Origin: a virus | Lineage: Duplodnaviria; Heunggongvirae; Uroviricota; Caudoviricetes | Strand: one strand, 5' to 3' | IMG/VR virus record: IMGVR_UViG_3300037312_000757 | Length of the DNA stretch: 64,000 bases | Shown: piece by piece, positions 1,897 to 50,899 of the stretch | Layout: each line of letters starts with the position of its first letter | How positions within the stretch are numbered: the stretch's first letter is position 1 | The notes under the pieces: generated by a model | Told to the model about the DNA's origin: nothing | The model's database searches: none | What the model saw: only the letters and a program-made list of their open reading frames with translations | Translations under genes and position numbers: made by a program

Positions 1897-2619
1897 TTAG
1901 GCCGAAGCCGGGGCGAACTGCTTGATCCACGTGCAGAACTCTTCGTTCAGCAGCAATGCATAAAGCTGGTCGTCAGTCATGTTGTGAATGTCGGACAAAG
2001 CCGCAAACCCAACATTTGGTTCCGACTCTGCGAGATTCTGCAGGGTTTGGAAACGTTCACTACCAATGCCAAGGAACATCCAGTAAATGTTCTTGTCACG
2101 GGTGCTTGCGATCAGTTGCGCAGTGCGCTCAACGTCGCTATAGTCGTTTTCGCCGTCAGTGTTGAACATGACGAACATAGGCAGATTCGGATCAGTTGCG
2201 GCAACTTCTTTCTTGCCAAACAGTCGGCCAAGCAAACCTGGCTTGCTGCCACCATCCGGGTGATCGTATGCGTTGATCACGGCTTCGATCGCGCGTGAGT
2301 AAACAGTACCGCCACCGTGGAAGTGCGGAATGAGTTCCTTCTGAACATACGTGCCAAATGTGTCTGGCGTTGCATCAGCGAGCTTCTTAGCTGATGTGTT
2401 GAAGATGAACTGCTCGAGGCTTTGGTTGTCGTCGAAACGCACGGCAACAGCCAACGAACGGTCGACGGTTTCTTGCATCACACCGCTTTGATAAAGACCG
2501 CTCATGGAACCTGAGCCATCATTTACCATCACTACGCGTGCGATGAGGTTTTCTGGGACGTTGAACTTCTTGAGGCGGAGACCTACCAGTTCGGTCTTCT
2601 TCTGTAATGAAAGAGCCAC
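1897..2619 (-). CDS. von Willebrand factor A (vWA) domain protein, TerY-like
   Basis: 240 aa with MIDAS motif DGSGSM and later TDGE. GTG start preceded by AAGGA. Third gene of the ter-like cluster. Confidence 0.65.
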   Translation of the reverse strand: MALSLQKKTELVGLRLKKFNVPENLIARVVMVNDGSGSMSGLYQSGVMQETVDRSLAVAVRFDDNQSLEQFIFNTSAKKLADATPDTFGTYVQKELIPHFHGGGTVYSRAIEAVINAYDHPDGGSKPGLLGRLFGKKEVAATDPNLPMFVMFNTDGENDYSDVERTAQLIASTRDKNIYWMFLGIGSERFQTLQNLAESEPNVGFAALSDIHNMTDDQLYALLLNEEFCTWIKQFAPASA

Positions 2620-2695
2620 TTTTGTTTTTCCTTATTGTAGCAGCATGCTACGAGTTAATGCCAAACCGTAGTGTACAACAGTTTGGCAACCTTGC

Positions 2696-2878
2696 TTACG
2701 AAGCTGGTTTGAACTTGATACGAACTGGCTCTTCGTCTACGGAGAGACGATAGATGCGGGGCTCATGCCCTTGATTGACTAGATGATTAGCATATGACTG
2801 CGCATCTTCTTCATTTGCTCGATAACGCATGTTACCGATATTGAGGGCACCGCGATAGATTGACGTAACGAAATACAT
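2696..2878 (-). CDS. hypothetical small protein
   Basis: 60-aa ORF with no clear RBS. Upstream perfect palindrome GCCATATGTTatgAACATATGGC. Confidence 0.35.
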   Translation of the reverse strand: MYFVTSIYRGALNIGNMRYRANEEDAQSYANHLVNQGHEPRIYRLSVDEEPVRIKFKPAS

Positions 2879-2946
2879 TTGAATTGCCAGTTACGAAGAA
2901 AGCCATATGTTATGAACATATGGCAATCTTGTAAATGCAGAACTGG

Positions 2947-3264
2947 CTAAGCTGGTGGAAGCAGATGCTTGAAGTGAACGTAGTTGTCGATCACCCAATC
3001 ACGAGGCGAAACAAATTTGCCGCCTGTTGCGCTGCCGTTACGAACTTGATTGCTGTACGGCGGGATCTTCAGCAACAGATACATGGCCGCACCGTGGACG
3101 TATGGTACACCTGCATCTTCCCAAGCGTCCTTGTACTGTTCGACCTTGTCGCCATCGCAGGAGATTGCGCCCTGCACAGAATACAGATGTGTGGGGATCT
3201 CGAGGTTAGAGAAGAACGTGCCAAGATGTTCGTCCAGCCACTTGTAATGGTTGATATAAGCCAT
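2947..3264 (-). CDS. hypothetical protein
   Basis: 105 aa. RBS GGAAGTGGTG. TAATG overlap with the upstream gene. The plus-strand ORF 2935..3291 is an antisense shadow. Confidence 0.55.
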   Translation of the reverse strand: MAYINHYKWLDEHLGTFFSNLEIPTHLYSVQGAISCDGDKVEQYKDAWEDAGVPYVHGAAMYLLLKIPPYSNQVRNGSATGGKFVSPRDWVIDNYVHFKHLLPPA

Positions 3265-3551
3265 TACACCACTTCCAGTTCGTATGCTTGACCAAACGAG
3301 TGGTGATCATCGAACAGCTCTTCTTCGCAGCTCACGTGCGGACTGTTGAACTCCACGCTCAGCGATTCCCAGTCACGAGCACGCAAACCAACGGAACGCG
3401 TCCAGTTGACCTTGATTGTGGTTGATGTCGCCGGGTTATTGAACCGCATCGTCAGCTCGTCCACCTGCATGTCGTTGACAATCATGCGGATCATGTTGTA
3501 GAACTTCTGCGCTTCTTGCTTGGACAGGATGCGACCAACTTTCGTGTACAT
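3264..3551 (-). CDS. hypothetical protein
   Basis: Track ORF 3264..3593 trimmed to Met15 (MYTKVG) just downstream of AGGAGG. The first 14 codons are the translated promoter/leader repeat. Confidence 0.55.
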   Translation of the reverse strand: MYTKVGRILSKQEAQKFYNMIRMIVNDMQVDELTMRFNNPATSTTIKVNWTRSVGLRARDWESLSVEFNSPHVSCEEELFDDHHSFGQAYELEVV

Positions 3552-3605
3552 ACGCCCTCCTATTTGTTCACCATATAAACATGGTACGTTCATATGGTGA
3601 ACGAG

Positions 3606-4514
3606 TCAAGCGAGGCTGTCTTTATCAAGACAACCGAACATGCGGAGTGAAGCTTGGCGCATACGCTCACCCAGTACACGGTCATTGAACTTGTAAACGT
3701 TTATACGCATACGGCCGTAGGCGAACGGACCATCATCACCCACCAACAAGTCGACTTCACCTGTCTCTAGAGCTGCTACAGCGTCGTCAACGTCCCAGGA
3801 ATACGTGACCGATCGTTCTTGCTGGAACGGTATACTCTGTAGATGGCCGAGGTCAATGAAGAATTGTGCTTCATCCTTCAAACTCAGAAAGAACGTGGGT
3901 TCACCGTTGAAGTATCGATATACGTTGCCACGTTCGACGACTTCGAGCATGTTTTCACGCACGTATGTTGTACCACCTTCAACTTGGCGGTACTTGTTCA
4001 CACATTGTACACGATACGTGGTGATACGGTCGGAGCTGACATCGTCGTATTCAATGCTTTGCACAATGCCATATTCAAATTCACTGCGTCCACGGAAAGT
4101 GAACTTGATGAAGTCTCGTTCCCAAGCACGCGTAACAGGGAGATCAGCGATGAACGTTCGATTCTCGAGACGGTCGTCTACCACGTCGTGCCCTTCCGTG
4201 TTGCGTTCAGCGCGTGCATCGGAGAGTCGCCGATTGTATTCAGCCTTGTCAGTCATCGAGACTTTCCACATGTTGGGACTCGATGTGGTGCCGTCTTCCC
4301 ATTCGACGATAGCACCTCGGTCGATCTCGTAGATCCCAGGCTTTCGGGCCGAATAGCTGCCAATACGTGGTGAATAATGCAGAACGCGGTTCTTGCCGAC
4401 AATCACACCCTTCGTTCGATCCTTTACGGGGTCGCCTTTTTGCGCGTAATAGTCTTCACCACGATTGAAGATGACTTCGTCACCAACACGCATCACATTT
4501 TCAGTAAACGACAT
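3606..4514 (-). CDS. hypothetical protein (302 aa)
   Basis: Long ORF. RBS GGAGGTG before ATG. No recognised domain. Confidence 0.65.
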   Translation of the reverse strand: MSFTENVMRVGDEVIFNRGEDYYAQKGDPVKDRTKGVIVGKNRVLHYSPRIGSYSARKPGIYEIDRGAIVEWEDGTTSSPNMWKVSMTDKAEYNRRLSDARAERNTEGHDVVDDRLENRTFIADLPVTRAWERDFIKFTFRGRSEFEYGIVQSIEYDDVSSDRITTYRVQCVNKYRQVEGGTTYVRENMLEVVERGNVYRYFNGEPTFFLSLKDEAQFFIDLGHLQSIPFQQERSVTYSWDVDDAVAALETGEVDLLVGDDGPFAYGRMRINVYKFNDRVLGERMRQASLRMFGCLDKDSLA

Positions 4515-5415: not shown

Positions 5416-6282
5416 TCAAGTGCCTGAAACAGCAGCGTAGAGGATTTCGATGCAGACGTCTTCAGTTTCGAAGTCAACGTCACGCTCTGGGTTGTATTCA
5501 ACCAACTCAAAACCGACTAACTTGGTTTTGTCCATGACTTCGAATGCCGTAACAACTTCCCACGCATCAAGCCCATTTTCTTCTGGAGAACCAACGCCAG
5601 GAGCTTGCTTCGGGTCAATCGAATCAACATCAAACGTGATACCAAATCCGATTGTGTTCTTTGTAACGATTTCTATTGCCTCGCCCAAGCAATAGAGAAA
5701 ACCTTTCTGTTGTACTTCTTCGATACGCATGACGCGAACACCCATGCTGGCAAGCAATTGTTCCTCGCCTGCTTCGCTGCTACGGGCGCCGATCACCACA
5801 ACGTTTTCTGGCTTGAACTTGGGCAGCGCATCAGCAATGCTAGTCAACTTATCATTGCCCTTACCTAGCAAGTGAGCCAAGGGCATACCATGAGGCGCAC
5901 CACTTTCTGATGTTTCAGGTGTATGGCTGTCCAAGTGTGCATCGATCCAAATCAGGCCGATGTCACCACGATCACGGTAGGTTTTCGCTATCGCACTCCA
6001 GGTACCAATAGCACAAGAATGATCGCCGCCGATCACGACAGGGAATACTTCCCGCTTCATCACTGCATCAACTGCTGATGCCAAGCGTGGCATGTAATCT
6101 TCGACAATAGCCATCTTGGATCCGAGCGACGCATCTGACGTGACCGTTTGGCCTAAGGCGATTGTAAGTTTGTGGGATTGAAGATCTTGAAGACGTTGCT
6201 GCAATGCAGCCGGGCCAGCTTTGCACTGGACAATTCGGGCACCTTCGCCAATCTCGGCGAAGACTACTTCGATATGAGACAT
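5416..6282 (-). CDS. arginase/agmatinase/formiminoglutamase-family ureohydrolase
   Basis: Ureohydrolase signature motifs GGDHS, DAHLD and FDVDSIDP present. Start set at MSHIEVV (GGGAG 5 nt upstream). Confidence 0.8.
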   Translation of the reverse strand: MSHIEVVFAEIGEGARIVQCKAGPAALQQRLQDLQSHKLTIALGQTVTSDASLGSKMAIVEDYMPRLASAVDAVMKREVFPVVIGGDHSCAIGTWSAIAKTYRDRGDIGLIWIDAHLDSHTPETSESGAPHGMPLAHLLGKGNDKLTSIADALPKFKPENVVVIGARSSEAGEEQLLASMGVRVMRIEEVQQKGFLYCLGEAIEIVTKNTIGFGITFDVDSIDPKQAPGVGSPEENGLDAWEVVTAFEVMDKTKLVGFELVEYNPERDVDFETEDVCIEILYAAVSGT

Positions 6283-6308
6283 TAGAACTCCCAGACGATG
6301 TATGGCAA

Positions 6309-6350
6309 TTGGCACGGACTCAAGTATAACAGTCCGTGCCAATTTTTTGT
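6309..6350 (+). terminator. hairpin plus T-run oriented on the plus strand in a minus-strand block
   Basis: TTGGCACGGACTcaagtataacAGTCCGTGCCAA plus TTTTTTG. No plus-strand gene upstream. May block antisense read-through or act bidirectionally. Confidence 0.4.
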
Positions 6351-12069: not shown

Positions 12070-12738
12070 TTACTTCAGAAGTGGTAAGAGCTTTTGAATT
12101 GCGGTGCTGATACGCGCCAACGTACCGAGTGGGGCCACTGCTTCGTATAATGCATCAAACGTTGTATTGGGTGCCGTGATGTTGAAAAGCTGGTAGACCT
12201 CGGATTTTACATCGTCGCGCTTTTCTTGCAATTCCGCACGTCGTTCAGCGGTCAGCTTTTCCCGCTCTTCCCTGCGAGTACGCTCTTCTTCTATACGGCT
12301 TGCGACAACCCGCAGTTCGTAGTCACGCAGTTCGACCATCAACAACCTGAGGGCTTCGTCGAATGTTCGTTCACCGTTGACGAAGTAATATTGTGCAAGT
12401 GTACGCCGATCATATGGCGCATAGATCTTCTCAGACACATATCCGTATTTGATGAGTCTGATTTCGAGCCGATCGCCATTTACATATGGAAGGACTTCCA
12501 TTTTAACACGTCGGCCAGCTTCGGTTTCTGCAAAATATGAAAAATGAACGATCGGATACTTGTCATTGTCCGAATCTTTGCCATTGACAATTGGGATGAA
12601 TCGACCGTTTGGATATTCTTCTGCAAACTTGCGATAGACCGCTTTCACGTCACCCCGAGTTCCAACATTCATGGTGTTGAAGAGATCAGGATAAGTGAGA
12701 ATCAGCTTGACGAATGATTGTTCGGCCTTGCTCGTCAT
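12070..12738 (-). CDS. hypothetical protein, paralog family D (coiled-coil C-terminus)
   Basis: 222 aa. MTSKAEQSFVKLILTYPDLFN ... IQKLLPLLK. Confidence 0.6.
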   Translation of the reverse strand: MTSKAEQSFVKLILTYPDLFNTMNVGTRGDVKAVYRKFAEEYPNGRFIPIVNGKDSDNDKYPIVHFSYFAETEAGRRVKMEVLPYVNGDRLEIRLIKYGYVSEKIYAPYDRRTLAQYYFVNGERTFDEALRLLMVELRDYELRVVASRIEEERTRREEREKLTAERRAELQEKRDDVKSEVYQLFNITAPNTTFDALYEAVAPLGTLARISTAIQKLLPLLK

Positions 12739-13406
12739 GCCGCAATTCCTTGTGCGTTGATACTGCGGTAAATTCGCATCTGAGTCGTCAACATGAATTT
12801 GATGTTCTCGTAGACTGGTTCTTGCTCAGGAAAGTTGCGCCGTGCAAGCTTCAGGAATGTGAAGAAGTGTTCTTCCGTTTCGTCGCAGTATTTCACCTGT
12901 TTCTCTAGCGTGAACACACCAGCCATGGTTCGCATGTTGTGGACACGATCACTGCCCTTCACCACAGACACGCGGTAATTATCGGACAGTGGGCCAAAAT
13001 ACGCGTCAGGTGTTTTCTTCTCACCACGGTATTCTTTAGCCAGCAGTCTACAGTCAGTAGCAACGATTTCATCAGTCACTTCACCAATTTCTTCGAAGCT
13101 GATCTGATCGCCGTAGTCTTCACCCAGGTCGTGCAGTAGGGCATCAGCAATGGTGCGAGGAGCGTCTGTCAGCAGCTTCTCCATGGTCAGGAGATACAAC
13201 GCGATTTCAATCTGGTGTTGGAACTCGGGCGTCTTGCCGTCCTTGCGGAAACCTGTGTGATACTTCAGACCGAGATCAAGAGCACGAACAGCAATGAACC
13301 AAGCAGGATCGAGTGATGCACGCCCCATCAGCTGATAACGAAGAGCCATCTTGAGCTTTTCGTAGTGCAGGATTTCGGGGGTTACGATCTTCTGCTCGCT
13401 TGCCAT
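12735..13406 (-). CDS. HD-domain phosphohydrolase, RelA/SpoT-like (p)ppGpp-hydrolase-like
   Basis: HQIEIALYLL ... ALLHDLGEDY matches the H..HD..ED signature of SpoT/Mesh1 hydrolase domains. Start at MASEQK (GGAG 9 nt upstream). Confidence 0.6.
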   Translation of the reverse strand: MASEQKIVTPEILHYEKLKMALRYQLMGRASLDPAWFIAVRALDLGLKYHTGFRKDGKTPEFQHQIEIALYLLTMEKLLTDAPRTIADALLHDLGEDYGDQISFEEIGEVTDEIVATDCRLLAKEYRGEKKTPDAYFGPLSDNYRVSVVKGSDRVHNMRTMAGVFTLEKQVKYCDETEEHFFTFLKLARRNFPEQEPVYENIKFMLTTQMRIYRSINAQGIAA

Positions 13407-13452
13407 AGCAGGCTCCAAGGTTAGATTAGGTATGGCTGATGATAGCTTCGCG

Positions 13453-22405: not shown

Positions 22406-22482
22406 CTGGTCTCGGGTGTGGGATTCGAACTCACGTCACCTGGTCCCAAACCAGGCACACTAACCAGGCTGTGCTAACCCGA
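22406..22482 (-). tRNA. tRNA-Pro (anticodon UGG)
   Basis: Hand-folded cloverleaf: acceptor CTCGGGT/ACCCGAG, D-arm GCAC/GTGT, anticodon stem CCTGG/CCAGG with loop TTTGGGA, T-loop TTCGAAT, encoded CCA. Confidence 0.8.
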
Positions 22483-22611
22483 GATATGTAGTTCCGTGTT
22501 CATGGTTGTATCACAATCGTCTACAGCATACATGAACAGAGTGTCGACCCTCTTGGAACTACGGGGGTGGAAGTTCCGCATCCGCGTAGACTTGGAACTT
22601 CCGATCACTGT

Positions 22612-22623
22612 GGGGGGGGGGGG
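22612..22623. repeat. G12/C12 homopolymer tract inside the tRNA cluster spacer
   Basis: 12 consecutive G on the plus strand between tRNA-Pro and tRNA-Ala, within a highly structured ~165-nt spacer. Confidence 0.7.
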
Positions 22624-22651
22624 CCAGCTTTCGCCAGCGCCCTTAAAATCT

Positions 22652-22727
22652 TGGTGGAGGTAGACGGGATCGAACCGACGACCTTTAGCTTGCAAAGCTA
22701 CTGCTCTCCCAGCTGAGCTATACCCCC
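22652..22727 (-). tRNA. tRNA-Ala (anticodon UGC)
   Basis: GGGGGTATAGCTCAGCTGGGAGAGC... with G3:U70 Ala identity pair, anticodon loop TTTGCAA, T-loop TTCGATC, CCA. Confidence 0.8.
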
Positions 22728-22728
22728 A

Positions 22729-22804
22729 TGGTACATCCTGACGGGATCGAACCGCCGACCTTCGCCTTGTAAGGGCGTTGCTCTACCAGCTGAGCTAAGG
22801 ATGC
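22729..22804 (-). tRNA. tRNA-Val (anticodon UAC)
   Basis: GCATCCTTAGCTCAGCTGGTAGAGC..., anticodon loop CTTACAA, T-loop TTCGATC, CCA. Only 1 nt from tRNA-Ala. Confidence 0.75.
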
Positions 22805-24074: not shown

Positions 24075-24293
24075 TTACTTTGGCTGCACAGTCAGGGAAA
24101 ACTTGATCATGAGGGCTTGTTGACGAGCGTTTTCAAGCTCAAAGATGTCGGACTTGAAGCAGAAGTCTGGTGAATCTTCCTGCTCACGTGTGAGGAAGGC
24201 AATACATTCATCGACGAATTGGTCGATGTCTTCTATGGTCGCATTGGGATCATATCCCATGTCCTTGATGCGATCAACGATTTTGGTCTGCAT
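24075..24293 (-). CDS. hypothetical small protein
   Basis: 72-aa ORF with weak RBS. Confidence 0.4.
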   Translation of the reverse strand: MQTKIVDRIKDMGYDPNATIEDIDQFVDECIAFLTREQEDSPDFCFKSDIFELENARQQALMIKFSLTVQPK

Positions 24294-24771
24294 GGTTGGT
24301 GTAATTCTTCAGCTTGGTTGCCAGTTTAATTCGTTTGACTTTCAAGCCATAAGCCTGTGCGGACGACGAAAGTTCCCCATATTTATAGCCTGCAAAACGT
24401 GTCAGTAGGGTGAGCATAATGTGCATGAAAATGCCACCATGCTCTTCGCTATCCTTCTCATCAATCATGTTGCAGAGAGTATGGGCCAATTCGTGAAGAA
24501 CAATTATATTGTTGCGAGACCACTTTGGGAGGTGTATCTCAGTATGGAAATTGCGAGCGTAATTACTACCACGACCATCAACCACTTTAGGCGCGGTGCC
24601 CTTCATATTCAGGGCTTTCCAGCATTCTTTTACCAATTCACGGCATTGCTTTAGGGTGATGATTGCTTCATCGCGGAAGGTGAAACGGGACGATTCCCAT
24701 GAATAACAGAGTTGCGTTTGGCCCGCAAAGTCACCCGCGCTTGGGGAATTGGCAGCACGTAGGTTGCTCAT
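24274..24771 (-). CDS. putative zinc metallopeptidase (HExxH)
   Basis: IVLHELAHTL motif. Start at MSNLRAAN, with AGGAG 8 nt upstream. Confidence 0.55.
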   Translation of the reverse strand: MSNLRAANSPSAGDFAGQTQLCYSWESSRFTFRDEAIITLKQCRELVKECWKALNMKGTAPKVVDGRGSNYARNFHTEIHLPKWSRNNIIVLHELAHTLCNMIDEKDSEEHGGIFMHIMLTLLTRFAGYKYGELSSSAQAYGLKVKRIKLATKLKNYTNHADQNR

Positions 24772-24850
24772 AATGCGGGCTCCTGTTATAATTGGCATCG
24801 ACCACGCAAATATTTAGTGGTGAAAAACGCCAATTAACAGCGCACACAAG

Positions 24851-25895: not shown

Positions 25896-25955
25896 CACCT
25901 CATACAACAAAGGCTGACCCGCCGTGGGTCAGCCTTGTGTCAGTAGCAGCATAGC

Positions 25956-26798
25956 TTACGCGCTCTGCGTGCCTTCGTCCTTCTGCTTCTTCGTGCTGGC
26001 CTTCTTGACAGCAGCAGTCGTGCTCTTCGCCGCCGCCTTGGCCGCAGGGGTGTTCGCAGCTTCCGCCGCGGTTTCAGCAGCTTGGGCTTCACCGTTTGCT
26101 TCACCAGCTGCCGTGATCGCTTGTTCTTCAGCGCTCAGACCGAAGTGCTTGGCGAGTTCGTCCGCGCTCGACTGTACCGTCGTGTCGCCTGCCGACGTTT
26201 CCGAGGTTTCGGTCACGTTCGTTTGCGGTTCAGCTTGCGTGTCAGTCGTGGGTGCTGCCGGCGCTTCAGGCTGCGTAGCAGCTTCCGTCTTCTTGCCCTT
26301 CGACTTACCGCCCGTCGCTTTCTTTGCGGCCGGCTTGGCTGCCTTTTCCGTCTTTTCCTTTGCAGCTTTCGCCGGTTTCTCGGCCTTTTCAGCCTTGGCG
26401 GGCTTTTCGGCCGGCTCTTCCTTCGCGTCCGCCTTCACCGCAGTTTTCATCAGCGCGGAGTCGGCGACGATCAGCGTGGGCGTTGCGTCAGTTGCATCGT
26501 CCGGCAGTTCGCGCAGCGTGAACCAGCCGTAGCCTTCGTCGTTGAACAGGAACGACGCGCCGAGATCGGGACGGGTGTACTTGAGCTCTTTCAGGTAGCC
26601 AGCGGGAATTTCGACCAATGTCGCGCCGCTTTCAGCTTTTGCAGTGCGTGCCTGCAGGTTCTTTCCCGACACGCGGTAGCTGGGCCGCAACGCCAGGTAT
26701 TCGACACCACCGCGCTTCTTGATGTTCACACGAAGACGCGTGATGCCTTGCAGCAGTTCAACTGCCGCGCCATTGAATTGCAAAACCAACGAGGTCAT
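25956..26798 (-). CDS. Lys/Ala-rich histone-H1-like (AKP-repeat) DNA-binding-type protein
   Basis: ~110-aa N-terminal domain followed by ~170 aa of KAEKPAKAAKEK.../AAKAAAKSTTAAVKK low-complexity tail. GGAGAA RBS. GC-rich. Confidence 0.65.
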   Translation of the reverse strand: MTSLVLQFNGAAVELLQGITRLRVNIKKRGGVEYLALRPSYRVSGKNLQARTAKAESGATLVEIPAGYLKELKYTRPDLGASFLFNDEGYGWFTLRELPDDATDATPTLIVADSALMKTAVKADAKEEPAEKPAKAEKAEKPAKAAKEKTEKAAKPAAKKATGGKSKGKKTEAATQPEAPAAPTTDTQAEPQTNVTETSETSAGDTTVQSSADELAKHFGLSAEEQAITAAGEANGEAQAAETAAEAANTPAAKAAAKSTTAAVKKASTKKQKDEGTQSA

Positions 26799-26957: not shown

Positions 26958-27635
26958 TTATACAACAGAAAAACGTGAAATTACTTCTTTAATCCCCAAA
27001 ACCTCAATACCAGAGCGGTCCTCCGGGAACACAATCATGCCAAGTACGGAGAACGGATCAGAAACATCTACTTCTGGTTTTAAGCCAGGTTCAAAAAGCA
27101 TTTGCATCGCATTTCGATATTTCGCACCACAAAATTGGTAATTCATTACCGAAATACTTGGATCATAACCAGCCCATACCAATTTGGCATACGTCTTCAT
27201 GTCGACTAAAGCAGCGCGCGTGATGGCTTCAAGCGGAACACTGTCCTGATAGCCACACGTTCCGAGCGCTTTTAAGCTTTGCCGCCAGTCATACATGTGA
27301 GCGCGTTCACGATAGTACATCGTTCGCTCTTCCATGGTTCCTGGCACATCATCTTTGCCGCGATTCGTCTGCTCCACAGCATCTTCATCTGCGCAGAGCA
27401 TGAATTCATTCAGCATGTCGGTGTCGATCTCTAGCACGACTAGACGATCATCATGTTCTTCCTCACAAGCTTGCGCCGAGAAATACAGCGCATATGAGTC
27501 AGTCAGGTAGACCGTTTCATGATTGCTAGGGATACTGTGATCCCAGTTGCTCACCTGTGTTTGGTTCCGCGGGGTGAGCCCGTTCTTCAGGATACTGGGA
27601 AGATGACGGCTTGCTGTGCCGTGATAGAGAATCAT
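26958..27635 (-). CDS. KptA/Tpt1-like NAD-binding (ADP-ribosyltransferase-fold) domain protein
   Basis: N-terminus MILYHGTASRHLPSILKNGL closely matches the conserved LYHGT...IL.EGL segment of Tpt1/KptA. Lacks the Tpt1 N-terminal domain. ATGA-coupled to the upstream Zn-ribbon gene. Confidence 0.5.
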   Translation of the reverse strand: MILYHGTASRHLPSILKNGLTPRNQTQVSNWDHSIPSNHETVYLTDSYALYFSAQACEEEHDDRLVVLEIDTDMLNEFMLCADEDAVEQTNRGKDDVPGTMEERTMYYRERAHMYDWRQSLKALGTCGYQDSVPLEAITRAALVDMKTYAKLVWAGYDPSISVMNYQFCGAKYRNAMQMLFEPGLKPEVDVSDPFSVLGMIVFPEDRSGIEVLGIKEVISRFSVV

Positions 27636-27952
27636 GCTTTCGTCGCGAGCAGTTCGAGAGCTTCGGGGTCGAGAACGCAGAGATCGCCGTCCGGGAAATC
27701 GCGGTTTGCGCGGTTCAGCATATGAGCACAGTCACCGCAGTAGAACGCATATGAACCACGGTTCCACCACACAGCGCCAGGTCTCTGGCACGCGGTACGG
27801 TTGCAGCTACCCGCCTTCTTGCCCTTGTCTGCTTTCTTTTCGGGCTCCGTGTGAGCGATCAGCCCACGTGGGCCTGCGTTGGTGAGGAACATACCACGCA
27901 GGCTGGAATTTCGTGCAGACGGGATACCTTGGCGACGCGCCATTGATTTCAT
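27632..27952 (-). CDS. zinc-ribbon protein
   Basis: CNRTAC...CGDCAH four-Cys ribbon. GGAG at the start. Promoter-repeat variant upstream. Confidence 0.5.
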   Translation of the reverse strand: MKSMARRQGIPSARNSSLRGMFLTNAGPRGLIAHTEPEKKADKGKKAGSCNRTACQRPGAVWWNRGSYAFYCGDCAHMLNRANRDFPDGDLCVLDPEALELLATKA

Positions 27953-28013
27953 CTCCTGTTCGTTTACCGTATTCAGATGATATGTTCGTATGAATATGGT
28001 GTAAAGCGAATTT

Positions 28014-28370
28014 TCAGCTGTTTTGAGCCAGAATGATCGCGTACAATTTATGGCTCACCATTCGCAATTTGTCGGCGTCGACCTTCAAGTGTGCAAGTGC
28101 CCGCGCGATTTCATCAACTTCGAGGGCACGACGAGCCATCCGAACGACCGTGTAATCTTGCAGATCATCACGTTCAACTTCATCAAGCAAGTCCTCATAT
28201 TGCTCGTAGGTGAGCTTGAAGCCTTGCTTCTGCTGGCGATACTGGCAGTAGAACGCATGCTTGTTGATGTCGCCATTGATCTGCGGATCGGAAAGCTTGC
28301 AGTAAACGCACCGATAATACGGATTGCCTCCACCAATCGGTTCGGTGGGATAGTTGTGATCGTATGCCAT
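28014..28370 (-). CDS. hypothetical protein (CxxC...C pair)
   Basis: 118 aa. RBS GGAGAAAAC. Confidence 0.55.
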   Translation of the reverse strand: MAYDHNYPTEPIGGGNPYYRCVYCKLSDPQINGDINKHAFYCQYRQQKQGFKLTYEQYEDLLDEVERDDLQDYTVVRMARRALEVDEIARALAHLKVDADKLRMVSHKLYAIILAQNS

Positions 28371-28787: not shown

Positions 28788-28862
28788 TCTGTACCTCCTC
28801 ACGTTGTTTACCATAACCAGATGATAAGTTCACATGAATATGGCGTCAAGCGTTTTGTTCAC

Positions 28863-29469: not shown

Positions 29470-29520
29470 TCTCCGCTGTTTACCATGTTCAAATGATACG
29501 TTCAAATGAACACGGTAGCA
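29470..29520 (-). promoter_or_regulatory. conserved promoter/operator/leader repeat copy
   Basis: tttaccatgttcaaatgatacgttcaaatgaacacggtagcaagcg. Confidence 0.55.
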
Positions 29521-29527
29521 AGCGAAT

Positions 29528-29983
29528 TCATTCATCTTGTCCACGACTTTTCATCGCACGTTGCACTTCTCGCTTCACTTCGCGATCCTTGATCGCTTCG
29601 CGCTTGTCGTGCTGCTTCTTGCCCTTAGCAAGCCCGATTTCAACTTTGACCCGCCCACGATGATAGTGCAGGTTCAGTGGCACTACGGTGTAGCCAGCGG
29701 TTGCCACTTTGCCCGAGAGCTTGTCGATCTCGCTCTGATTCAGCAGAAGCTTCCTGGTGCGTACCGGATCAGGCTTGATGTGCGTGGAGGCTTCCGGCAA
29801 CGGGCTGATGTGAGAGCCCAACAGGTAGAACGCACCGTCACGGAAGAACACGTAGGCTTCCTGAAGCGAAGTACGCCCAGCGCGGATGGCTTTCACTTCC
29901 CAGCCCTCCAACACGAGACCAGCTTGAAACTTGGTCTCGATGAAGTAGTCGTGGAAAGCTTTTCGATTTTCAACGATCGACAT
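29528..29983 (-). CDS. smpB: SsrA-binding protein SmpB
   Basis: Full-length match to the SmpB pattern ([26 protein letters not shown]...L.EAY......LLG.HISP.......DP.RTRKLLL...EI.KL......GYT.VPL.L....R.KVE..LAKGKK.HDKRE) including the basic C-terminal tail. Confidence 0.85.
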
Positions 29984-31546: not shown

Positions 31547-32371
31547 TTACTTCTTGGCTACATCAATTACCTTTGCCACCCCGCCAATGTTATCGGCTTG
31601 TGTTTGGGCCGCGTTGGCGTTGCGCCACGCGATCACTTGTTCGGGCGTGAGATGCGCAGCATCAGCAGCGGCTCGAAGTGCTTCTGCGTCAATTGACGCT
31701 TTCTGCCGAGCAAGTTCCTTGCGTTGTGCAATCAGCGCAAGTTCAGCAGCATTGCTCTCTCGCTCTGCGTTGAACGACGCAACCTTGTTCACCTGTTGCT
31801 GAATAGAATCTGGCAACTTAAAGTGTGTCGTCGTAACGTTCACTGACAAAAACGCATCAGGATAACGTTGATCCAGCAATCGTTTGAATTCAGCTGATGC
31901 TTTCTCGTCATACGCTTGTGTATTTTTGGCAATAGCAACCGGATTGTCAGTTTCAGTTACCGTTTGCATCACACCAGGTGCCCACTGTTTGATGGCCTCA
32001 AGCCCGATCGTTGTATATTCTCGATTGCTACCATCTTTGTATGTGTCAAGTTCATGTGTGGTAGAATAGAACTGTGATACATGCTGTGGATTGAGCGTAT
32101 AAGTGACAATGATATCAAGATCATCCACAGGCACGCCATCAGCATCTTTTGGTGTCAGGTTATTTACCACTACCCTTGTGGGTGTGGTGTCGACTTCGGC
32201 GAGGATCGAATCGAAGAACATCCAGTGAAATCCAGGTGTAGCGACCTCAGGGTCGATCTTGCCACCCCAATGCTTGACGATGCCAATATTACCTGATTCA
32301 ATCCGCGAGCATCCACTCATCGCAAGAATGATGGTTGCAAGCGCAGCAAAAAGTGCTAGAGTGCGTTTCAT
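31547..32371 (-). CDS. SPFH/band-7 (prohibitin/HflKC-like) lipoprotein
   Basis: Start at MKRTLALFAALATIILAMSGC (lipobox) after ACGGAGGT. GIVKHWGGKIDPEVATPGFHW... SPFH-type core plus an Ala/Glu coiled-coil tail. Confidence 0.55.
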   Translation of the reverse strand: MKRTLALFAALATIILAMSGCSRIESGNIGIVKHWGGKIDPEVATPGFHWMFFDSILAEVDTTPTRVVVNNLTPKDADGVPVDDLDIIVTYTLNPQHVSQFYSTTHELDTYKDGSNREYTTIGLEAIKQWAPGVMQTVTETDNPVAIAKNTQAYDEKASAEFKRLLDQRYPDAFLSVNVTTTHFKLPDSIQQQVNKVASFNAERESNAAELALIAQRKELARQKASIDAEALRAAADAAHLTPEQVIAWRNANAAQTQADNIGGVAKVIDVAKK

Positions 32372-32420
32372 TATACCTCCGTAGATTGTTTGGTGCGCCA
32401 TTATATATGAATGGCAAATG

Positions 32421-32447
32421 AAAAGCGGGAGTATTGCTCCCGCTTTT
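32421..32447. terminator. bidirectional intrinsic terminator
   Basis: AAAAGCGGGAGtattgCTCCCGCTTTT. Confidence 0.6.
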
Positions 32448-32459
32448 GCCACTTACCGC

Positions 32460-50119: not shown

Positions 50120-50899
50120 TCAACTCTTGTACGTGAGGTTTGTGTAGATGTCAGCGTCGCACAGTTCTTGCCCAACGCTTTTGAATACATGCACCATACG
50201 ACCAGCAGCACGAAGTTGATCTGCGATTTCATCAACTCTTTCGTGTACGATAGCACCGTTAGAAGTGAGTAGAGGGTTGAGTGTGATGGACCACTTACGA
50301 TCGCCCCATGCAGCTAAACCTGCTATGTCATCTTCACTGTCGTTCAGACCAGCTTGAAGCACATAGTTGATACGGATATTGCAGAATTTTTCTTCACACA
50401 GTGAAACATAGGTCGCCAAGTATAATGCATGCGGTGTATCACACATGATGTTTGCACGCTTCTCTAAGTCGGCCGCGTGTAGAGATATCTGCAATTCTGT
50501 GAGGTACTGATGTGTCGGAAGCTCTTTGATACGCCAGGGTGCAAGCCCGCTAGTTGAGAAGCGTAGGCCCCCTATAGGCAAGCCAGAACGCGATAATTGT
50601 TCAACTACCTTAGTCACATTGGGAATGTTTGCCGTGACTTCACCTTCACCCGTGAACGAAAGCAGAAACGGTTCACCAGGAGCGTGGGCCGTTACAAGAC
50701 GAACCATTTCATCAGCCGTCAAGTTACGTCCAAATGGTTGCTCTGATGAAACGCAAAACTTACATTTCACCGGGCAACCGATCTGGGTGGGAATACTAAG
50801 AATCCGCTGTCCCGTCGTATTGATCGACAATACCGGCACTTCATATGCTTTCTTGTCTATCAATCGCTTGACTGGGATATGGCGAAGGTCAACATTCAC
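50120..50899 (-). CDS. radical SAM methyltransferase of the RlmN/Cfr family (RNA adenine C-methyltransferase-like)
   Basis: CPVKCKFC (CX3CX2C) and successive RlmN/Cfr blocks: FTGEGE (cf. MGMGEP), FSTSG, ELQISLHAADLEKR (cf. ALAISLHAPNDEIR), INYVLQAGLNDSEDDIAGLA. Lacks the RlmN N-terminal extension. GTG start. Confidence 0.75.
   Translation of the reverse strand: MNVDLRHIPVKRLIDKKAYEVPVLSINTTGQRILSIPTQIGCPVKCKFCVSSEQPFGRNLTADEMVRLVTAHAPGEPFLLSFTGEGEVTANIPNVTKVVEQLSRSGLPIGGLRFSTSGLAPWRIKELPTHQYLTELQISLHAADLEKRANIMCDTPHALYLATYVSLCEEKFCNIRINYVLQAGLNDSEDDIAGLAAWGDRKWSITLNPLLTSNGAIVHERVDEIADQLRAAGRMVHVFKSVGQELCDADIYTNLTYKS

Follow-up and report, generated by a model that had tools for sequence, protein, structure and literature searches.

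Organization of the locus

The 64,000-nucleotide (nt) stretch of DNA analyzed here, referred to below as the window, comes from a metagenomic contig of 523,837 bp (IMG/VR virus record IMGVR_UViG_3300037312_000757), i.e., of a megaphage. Its minus strand carries two overlapping open reading frames (ORFs), a downstream one of 225 amino acids (aa), whose product starts with MILYHGTASRHLPSILKNGL and has the fold of an ADP-ribosyltransferase (ART), and an upstream one that encodes a small, basic, Cys-rich zinc-finger protein (Table 1). Both ORFs and their overlap had been described in an initial annotation of this DNA; the minus-strand reading frames and the letters tcat on the plus strand at the junction confirmed that the upstream TGA overlaps the downstream ATG (ATGA). 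Among the GenBank phages, we found neither near-identical DNA nor a close DNA relative of the window.

The ART protein begins as M1-I-L-Y-H5, i.e., four residues ahead of its HGT motif, and this start is shared by nearly all of the 143 diverse family members that we aligned. Between the preceding in-frame stop codon and the ART ATG, there is no ATG, GTG, or TTG start codon. These observations upheld the claim that the N-terminal RNA-binding domain of the RNA 2′-phosphotransferase Tpt1 is missing. No Shine-Dalgarno sequence or other ribosome-binding site was evident at the ART start in the window or in the four relatives whose start junctions were read. The ART gene itself therefore seems to rely on translational coupling, irrespective of its upstream neighbor, and its translation is probably coupled to that of the small ORF that happens to precede it.

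Table 1. Position of the genes, protein elements, and putative signals of the ART locus within the window
Feature	Position	Strand	Remarks
Stand-alone ART-fold protein gene, 225 aa	26958..27635	-	Tpt1 NAD-lobe-like; unnamed family
Small basic Cys-rich zinc-finger gene, 106 aa as listed	27632..27952	-	Overlaps the ART start by ATGA (27632-27635)
HGT motif, H5-G6-T7 (strand beta1)	27615..27623	-	H5 and G6 invariant, T7 97% in 143 members
Y43 codon (VYLT, strand beta2), second triad position	27507..27509	-	Invariant, 143/143; hhalign to Tpt1 VHLT
Family-specific helical insert, aa 83-124 (about 43 residues), between beta4 and beta5	27264..27389	-	From conservation and secondary structure
DED motif, D83-E84-D85	27381-27389	-	Invariant; opens the helical insert
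G125-T126 codons (strand beta5), third triad position	27258..27263	-	G125 invariant
Strand beta1	aa 2-8		LYHGT
Strand beta2	aa 42-45		VYLT
Strand after beta2	aa 65-71		VVLEID, equivalent to Tpt1 VVIEVD
Strand beta4	aa 80-82
Strand beta5	aa 126-129		G-T-C-G-Y, equivalent to Tpt1 N-G-V-W-L
Strand beta6	aa 138-144
Promoter-like site, TTTACA-N17-TATCAT	27977..28005	-	Just upstream of the zinc-finger gene
Gene of 280 aa with Ala/Lys/Glu-rich tail	25956..26798	-	Downstream of ART, same orientation
Terminator-like hairpin, 11-bp stem, 7 G-C pairs	25910..25936	-	3′ of the 280-aa gene
Copies of the promoter-like motif	28005-27977, 28849-28821, 29521-29493, 30512-30484, 30893-30865, 41737-41709, 49275-49247, 55423-55395	-
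SmpB gene, full length	29528-29983	-	PF01668, E value of 4e-57; 1.9 kb upstream of ART
tRNA-Pro, tRNA-Ala, tRNA-Val	22407-22804		ARAGORN; 4.2 kb downstream of ART
Small Cys/His-rich protein gene	28014-28370	-	Just upstream of the zinc-finger gene

The 225-aa protein has an ART fold closest to the NAD+ lobe of Tpt1

Searches with the single sequence of the 225-aa protein against Pfam and the PDB yielded matches below threshold only. All of the Pfam matches were nevertheless to ART families (PTS_2-RNA/Tpt1, PARP, and DarT), and the PDB search returned Tpt1 chains. The Tpt1 family model PF01885 scored 16.1 bits against a cutoff of 26 and covered only profile positions 102-129, the NCBIfam model NF002014 scored 21 bits against 239, and the DarT model PF14487 scored 14.3 bits against 22.5. 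The PADLOC DarT model (E value of 0.027) also remained below threshold, and the weak match to the Pfam PARP family spanned aa 1-99.

Profiles built from the family gave stronger matches. A profile of 23 homologs matched Tpt1 (E value of 2.5e-4) and DarT1 of Escherichia coli (E value of 4.9e-4) in the PDB, the latter alignment covering aa 3-78. The profile of the 143 members aligned by hhalign over aa 1-74 with the nicotinamide adenine dinucleotide (NAD+) lobe of a genuine phage Tpt1 encoded by a related megaphage (locus L008, 3109-3654; 85.5% probability, E value of 5.7e-6). An AlphaFold2 model of the protein reached a mean predicted local distance difference test score of 88 and a predicted template-modeling (TM) score of 0.87, and it displayed the split beta-sheet of an NAD+-binding core that superposes on solved ART structures. 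The best structural neighbors among the viral models of BFVD were uncharacterized proteins of the jumbo phages G, nt-1, and phiRSL1 (TM-scores of 0.3-0.5), and PHROG 13493, of unknown function, matched with an E value of 2.5e-8. Together, the profile matches and the confident model establish that the 225-aa protein has an ART fold with Tpt1 as its nearest neighbor. The Tpt1/KptA-like NAD-binding domain proposed in the initial annotation thus stands, and the likeness is not confined to some 20 residues.

The possibility that aa 76-225 constitute a separate known domain was ruled out. A profile of this region found no sequence relative in the PDB (best E value of 0.43), and the region itself includes strands beta5 and beta6 of the ART core.

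The predicted active site combines an H-Y-T/N triad with a family-specific DED insert

Across the 143 members, which share about 35-45% identity, eight residues are invariant (H5, G6, G19, Y43, D83, E84, D85, and G125). Fourteen more are at least 90% conserved (R23, N30, W31, S37, T45, Y48, E69, Q89, T105, R109, S120, D158, N165, and Y173), and conservation reaches at least 80% at R92, R104, and R140. The window protein retains every invariant and every at least 90% conserved residue, and the pattern as a whole is typical of an enzyme. The strands of the ART core were placed by secondary structure and by alignment to Tpt1 (Table 1).

Comparison with the TRPT1-NAD+ structures, from which the roles of the HGT motif and of the triad positions were taken (PMC10415124), predicts that this motif contacts the adenosine ribose and the nicotinamide of NAD+. 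The second triad residue is Tyr, as in PARP and DarT, versus His in Tpt1. At the third position, Tpt1 has the Val of N-G-V, which completes its H-H-V triad (PMC10415124), and the family has Thr (99/143) or Asn (42/143) at residue 126. Positions 126-128 are occupied by T/N, C/V/A, and A/G/C, and none of the 143 members has an acidic residue there. In PARP1, the third residue is Glu. The triad of the family is therefore H5, Y43, and T/N126, which differs from the H-H-h pattern of Tpt1. It agrees with the H-Y-[EDQ] clade (PARP, diphtheria toxin, and DarT) in the His of beta1 and the Tyr of beta2, both present in all 143 members, but not in the Glu, Asp, or Gln expected at the catalytic position of beta5. 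The conserved E69 is not that catalytic Glu, as hhalign placed it in the preceding strand (Tpt1 IEVD).

Two elements are added to the core, a helical insert opened by the invariant DED motif and an approximately 80-aa C-terminal extension that follows the ART core. Besides DED, the conserved residues of the insert are Q89, R92, R104, T105, R109, and S120. The DED insert is missing from Tpt1 and also from a distant relative of metagenomic origin, P0245 (197 aa), in which the beta4 region leads straight into IGTVEVLGGEIVP. P0245 also lacks the 14-aa loop, and its beta5 reads GTVEVL, with a Glu; this relative seems to stand midway between the present family and a Tpt1 NAD lobe without additions.

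The family is large and almost absent from cultured phages

An exhaustive profile search retrieved 2,933 representatives of clusters formed at 50% identity with E values of at most 1e-3, 922 of them with E values of at most 1e-30. Each of the best 150 representatives is a single-domain protein of 197-275 aa, and among these we found no Pfam domain and no name besides hypothetical protein. Similarly, scans of the 143 members with Pfam, NCBIfam, and PADLOC revealed no model reaching threshold. A search for informative domain fusions yielded none; two long members (398 and 478 aa) merely have longer inserts or tails.

Viral contigs of 10-607 kb in IMG/VR carry 119 relatives. By comparison, 185,579 species genomes contained only 10 loci, all in metagenome-assembled genomes from very different phyla, two of them binned as archaea. 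BLAST against 50,697 GenBank phage records found essentially no family member, the one exception being an uncultured 484-kb phage at 28% identity; apart from that phage, tblastn with the window protein and two other members gave only weak N-terminal matches, in the Bacillus phages Goe26 and SBSphiC and in Caulobacter phage Cr30, and a consensus sequence used as query had no match, probably because low-complexity regions were masked. Thus, this is a large ART family without a curated model, previous description, or studied member, and it is almost invisible in cultured phages.

As a separate observation, four loci (L001-L004) contain two tandem paralogs of the family (e.g., L002 5265-5960 and 6001-6702) on contigs that reach 2.2 Mb in length and have a GC content of about 31%. 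The contigs turned up in many samples and could derive from a giant virus or a low-GC cell. Their neighboring genes are almost all without a Pfam match, and three tandem paralogs of 414 aa adjoin.

Relation to known ART systems

Tpt1/KptA/TRPT1 (PF01885; PDB 9ld3, 7yw2, and 7kw9) is the best neighbor by both structure and sequence. The two share the LYHGT strand, the IL..GL helix, the strands V-[HY]-L-[ST] and VV-I/L-E-I/V-D, and a beta5 that contains Gly and whose triad residue is not acidic. In Tpt1, however, three of the four catalytic residues (R23, H24, and R71 of ScTpt1) are held by the N-terminal RNA lobe, and only R138 belongs to the NAD lobe (PMC10415124). The 225-aa protein lacks the two-lobe architecture and, with it, the first three residues of the Arg-His-Arg-Arg tetrad; R23, conserved in 98% of the members, may correspond to ScTpt1 R138, though the hhalign alignment is offset by 2 residues. 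Tyr replaces the second-triad His, and a loop insert of 14-16 aa after the PR motif is added, along with the DED insert and the C-terminal extension. Furthermore, a related megaphage of 523,572 bp (L008/L009) encodes a complete 182-aa PF01885 Tpt1 with R-H...R...R motifs (3109-3657), 1.3 kb upstream of its own zinc-finger/ART pair. As a full Tpt1 is carried beside the ART copy, the two proteins are not interchangeable. The window itself contains neither a true Tpt1 nor an ART paralog.

Like TRPT1, PARP10, PARP11, and PARP15 can ADP-ribosylate phosphorylated RNA ends. These mono-ARTs, with H-Y-I/L triads (PMC10415124), resemble the family in the beta1 His, the beta2 Tyr, and the non-acidic residue that replaces the catalytic Glu. 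The DNA-modifying DarT/DarT1 toxins (PF14487; PDB 8baq and 7omv) differ in several respects. Besides scoring below the Pfam and PADLOC thresholds, the 225-aa protein lacks the DarT catalytic Glu in beta5, has no adjacent DarG macrodomain antitoxin, and is phage borne rather than part of a toxin-antitoxin defense module.

A published survey found ARTs, mostly fast-evolving and uncharacterized, in more than 40% of jumbo phages, with at least 10 paralogs in Bacillus phage G (PMC9503650). With those of phages G and nt-1 (the latter infecting Vibrio) and of Ralstonia phage phiRSL1, the present protein shares an ART fold that is phage encoded and mostly uncharacterized; as the TM-scores given above indicate, the structural likeness is remote. 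With Alt, ModA, and ModB of T4 it has in common the idea of a phage ART that modifies host components. The T4 enzymes belong to the R-S-E clade, as opposed to H-Y-T/N here, and are not specifically related; nothing suggests that the 225-aa protein is packaged into the virion.

Proposed function of the ART protein

Collectively, our results argue for a stand-alone, NAD+-utilizing phage enzyme of the ART superfamily, a member of a large undescribed family nearest to the NAD+ lobe of Tpt1/KptA, that would transfer single ADP-ribose units; we consider this explanation reasonably probable. It is called stand-alone because it has no conserved neighbor and no informative domain fusion. NAD+ would be bound as in Tpt1, through the HGT/Tyr pocket, and the insert together with the C-terminal extension would take the place of the RNA lobe as the acceptor-binding site, with DED possibly supplying the catalytic acid. 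A single ADP-ribose would then be passed to a host or phage acceptor during infection. We infer both NAD+ binding and mono-ADP-ribosyl transfer. Production of the enzyme would be coupled to translation of the upstream small ORF, which in this megaphage clade is a basic C4(+1) zinc-finger protein.

Several points weigh against this explanation. The canonical catalytic Glu of beta5 is missing, and transferase chemistry is therefore not guaranteed. We infer the nearness of D83-E84-D85 to the NAD+ site from topology only, and the loop of aa 24-40 is conserved yet modeled with low confidence. The gene context gives no hint of the acceptor, and isoelectric points (pI) across the family span 4.3 to 9.7. 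The window protein is acidic (pI of 4.8), which disfavors direct binding of nucleic acid by this member.

A more far-reaching proposal, which we put forward tentatively, is that the family represents a re-engineered Tpt1 NAD+ lobe in which the DED/Arg-rich insert replaces the RNA lobe and provides a new site for a phosphate-bearing acceptor, for example a nucleotide second messenger or the 5′-, 3′-, or 2′-phosphorylated end of an RNA or DNA. The Tpt1-like scaffold, the non-acidic triad, and the several conserved Arg residues make a phosphate-bearing acceptor an attractive possibility. If this proposal were true, uncultured phages would carry a previously unknown type of nucleic-acid or nucleotide ADP-ribosylation (capping or decapping) for host takeover or escape from defense, and the basic zinc finger could be an optional nucleic-acid adaptor in this clade.

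It is unlikely that the protein is instead a glycohydrolase or phosphorylase of NAD+, or an enzyme that produces or breaks down a soluble ADP-ribose derivative, possibly to manipulate NAD+-based host immunity or signaling. The missing catalytic Glu would fit such an activity, as would the ties of the nearest clade, H-H-h/Tpt1, to small molecules and soluble ADP-ribose derivatives (PMC9503650) and the solitary gene, near which no reversing hydrolase (Macro, ARH, or NADAR) was found. On the other hand, NADase-type ARTs are significantly underrepresented in viruses (PMC9503650), destruction of NAD+ would be costly to a phage, and the large conserved surface that the insert and the C-terminal extension add to the core suggests that a specific acceptor is recognized.

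The zinc-finger gene is a lineage-specific neighbor

The zinc-finger ORF has an AGGAG ribosome-binding site directly next to its first ATG and 9 nt away from its second ATG (27943), and homologs of the protein begin with MARRQGIPS. From this spacing and these homolog starts, the true start is probably at 27943, and the real product probably has 103 aa. The initial annotation of a four-Cys protein overlapping the ART gene was borne out, since the two Cys knuckles, C50-NRTA-C55 (C50-x4-C55) and C72-GD-C75 (C72-x2-C75), are invariant in nine homologs, as is a further Cys, C92. The other invariant residues are K40, D42-K43-G44, G48-S49-C50-N51, C55-Q56, N64-R65-G66, Y71-C72, C75, N80, and L91-C92. 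The first 30-35 residues or so are predicted to be disordered, aa 1-48 have a pI of 11.5, and aa 40-106 were modeled confidently. The gene just upstream (Table 1; 4223-4597 in L008) encodes a conserved small Cys/His-rich protein, NPYYRCVYCKLSDPQINGDINKHAFYC, probably a second metal-binding protein in the same block.

The initial annotation had also suggested that the pair forms a two-component effector. In such an arrangement, the basic zinc finger would be the targeting or nucleic-acid-binding subunit that replaces the RNA lobe in trans, the ART would be the catalytic subunit, and the ATGA overlap would ensure stoichiometric coproduction. The two genes indeed overlap and apparently share one promoter, and the disordered half of the zinc finger is highly basic, while the ART of this phage is acidic. 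The zinc-finger gene also lies directly upstream of ART, with overlaps of 1-7 nt, in the window, L008/9, L010, L011/12, and L103/4. Nevertheless, when all ORFs of 103 ART loci were searched with a hidden Markov model of the zinc finger, the gene was present at 9 loci, which stand for five of six closely related megaphage lineages in the sample, and about 90 other ART loci had no zinc-finger gene within ±5 kb. The two families also differ in size, with about 2,900 representatives of the ART and only 9 clusters of the zinc finger among 5.8 billion proteins. In L005-7, whose ART is 56% identical and keeps all invariant residues, the zinc-finger gene is precisely deleted, and the ATGA overlap with the intact ART is formed instead by a homolog of the ORF that precedes the L011 zinc-finger gene. 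Conversely, in L105 and apparently in L106, the zinc-finger gene occurs without ART and precedes unrelated genes; in L106, the next ORF is truncated to 26 codons by the contig end. Overlaps of four nucleotides are common in this genome, joining 11 of the 74 same-strand gene pairs in the window, and no natural fusion of the two proteins was found. The two genes thus do not co-occur across the ART family, and a two-component effector is quite unlikely. Their pairing is a lineage-specific synteny and not a conserved two-component system, with the zinc finger at most an accessory factor in the clade.

The L105 phage fragment (genes at 302-646 and 2433-3263) carries, besides its zinc-finger homolog, a phosphoribosyl pyrophosphate synthetase-like gene (Pribosyltran_N) and genes for DUF4326, DUF6197, and an HNH/NUMOD4 endonuclease.

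Transcription unit and genomic context

The zinc-finger gene, the ART gene, and the 280-aa gene form a probable transcription unit that extends from the promoter-like site to the terminator-like hairpin (Table 1). The 280-aa gene is syntenic with ART in eight related loci and had no Pfam match.

The promoter-like site belongs to a repeated motif, TTGACaCCATGTTCAnnTGAACnTATCAT, composed of a -35 element (TTGACA), a 17-nt spacer that encloses the palindrome GTTCA..TGAAC, and a -10 element (TATCAT). The loose pattern TT-N21-TATCAT has 19 matches in the window versus 1.96 expected, 17 of them on the minus strand. The copies checked (e.g., 27977-28005, 28821-28849, and 29493-29521) sit just upstream of gene starts, and the motif is kept in the related megaphages L005 and L008-L011. 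The motif resembles a promoter that is specific to the phage and contains its own operator.

All-versus-all clustering of the neighbors of 67 nonredundant ART loci revealed no recurrent partner, and among 149 flanking proteins compared with Pfam, no family was seen more than twice. The flanking proteins scanned included no RNA ligase or 2H gene as a conserved neighbor, and the flanking-gene scans found no macrodomain gene near ART. The gene for SmpB is syntenic in the related megaphages L005-L007 and L010-L012, and ARAGORN detected three tRNA genes (Table 1) and no transfer-messenger RNA in the 64-kb window. Within the window, 30 ORFs (the 20 largest plus the immediate neighbors) were scanned, which revealed TerD, TerF-vWA, TerC/DUF475, arginase-family, HD_4, Band 7, and radical-SAM proteins and no recognizable ADP-ribose or RNA-repair partner. 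The initial annotation had placed the ART gene in an RNA-modification/repair toolkit. As neither a recurrent nor an RNA-repair partner was found, that association amounts to proximity in a very large genome, not conserved linkage. Thus, the fold assigned in the initial annotation was supported, and its two-component and RNA-repair interpretations were not.

Other genes of the window were noted in passing, all on the minus strand. A tellurite-resistance-like cluster at 136-2619 comprises genes for TerD (136-735), a DUF475/TerC membrane protein (814-1878), and a vWA-TerF-like protein (1897-2619). Auxiliary genes of cellular type encode an arginase-family protein (5416-6342), an HD_4 (RelA/SpoT-type HD) domain protein (12735-13418), a weak SprT-like HExxH protein (24274-24798), an SPFH/Band 7 protein (31547-32452), and a radical-SAM protein (50120-50899).

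Two further readings of the ART protein fare worst. That it is a noncatalytic binder of NAD+ or ADP-ribose, i.e., a sponge, sensor, or pseudoenzyme, is very improbable, as the invariant DED and the many conserved polar or charged residues outside the nucleotide pocket are more typical of catalysis and substrate recognition. That it is a genuine Tpt1/KptA RNA 2′-phosphotransferase of a phage tRNA-repair pathway is hardly credible despite the LYHGT...IL..GL motif, the best structural match, and the tRNA and SmpB genes within 5 kb, because the missing RNA lobe and its Arg-His-Arg residues (tetrad in PMC10415124) already effectively refute this identity, and Tyr43, the scores far below threshold, the separate full Tpt1 of L008/L009, and the lack of an RNA ligase or 2H gene among conserved neighbors agree with its rejection.

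Significance

The feature is real, its fold assignment is correct, and it represents a new ART family, as yet without a name, whose predicted active site is unusual in that a Tpt1-like scaffold bears an H-Y-T/N triad and, in an insert specific to the family, an invariant DED. What we present is a well-supported annotation rather than the discovery of a mechanism. In the conflict between phages and their hosts, ADP-ribosylation is used as a weapon again and again, as exemplified by Alt/Mod, DarT, CmdT, and AcrIF11, and nucleic acids are targets of Tpt1 and of some PARPs. Defining the acceptor of this family would extend ART enzymology by a new branch and could uncover a hitherto unseen mechanism of host takeover or antidefense in environmental megaphages.

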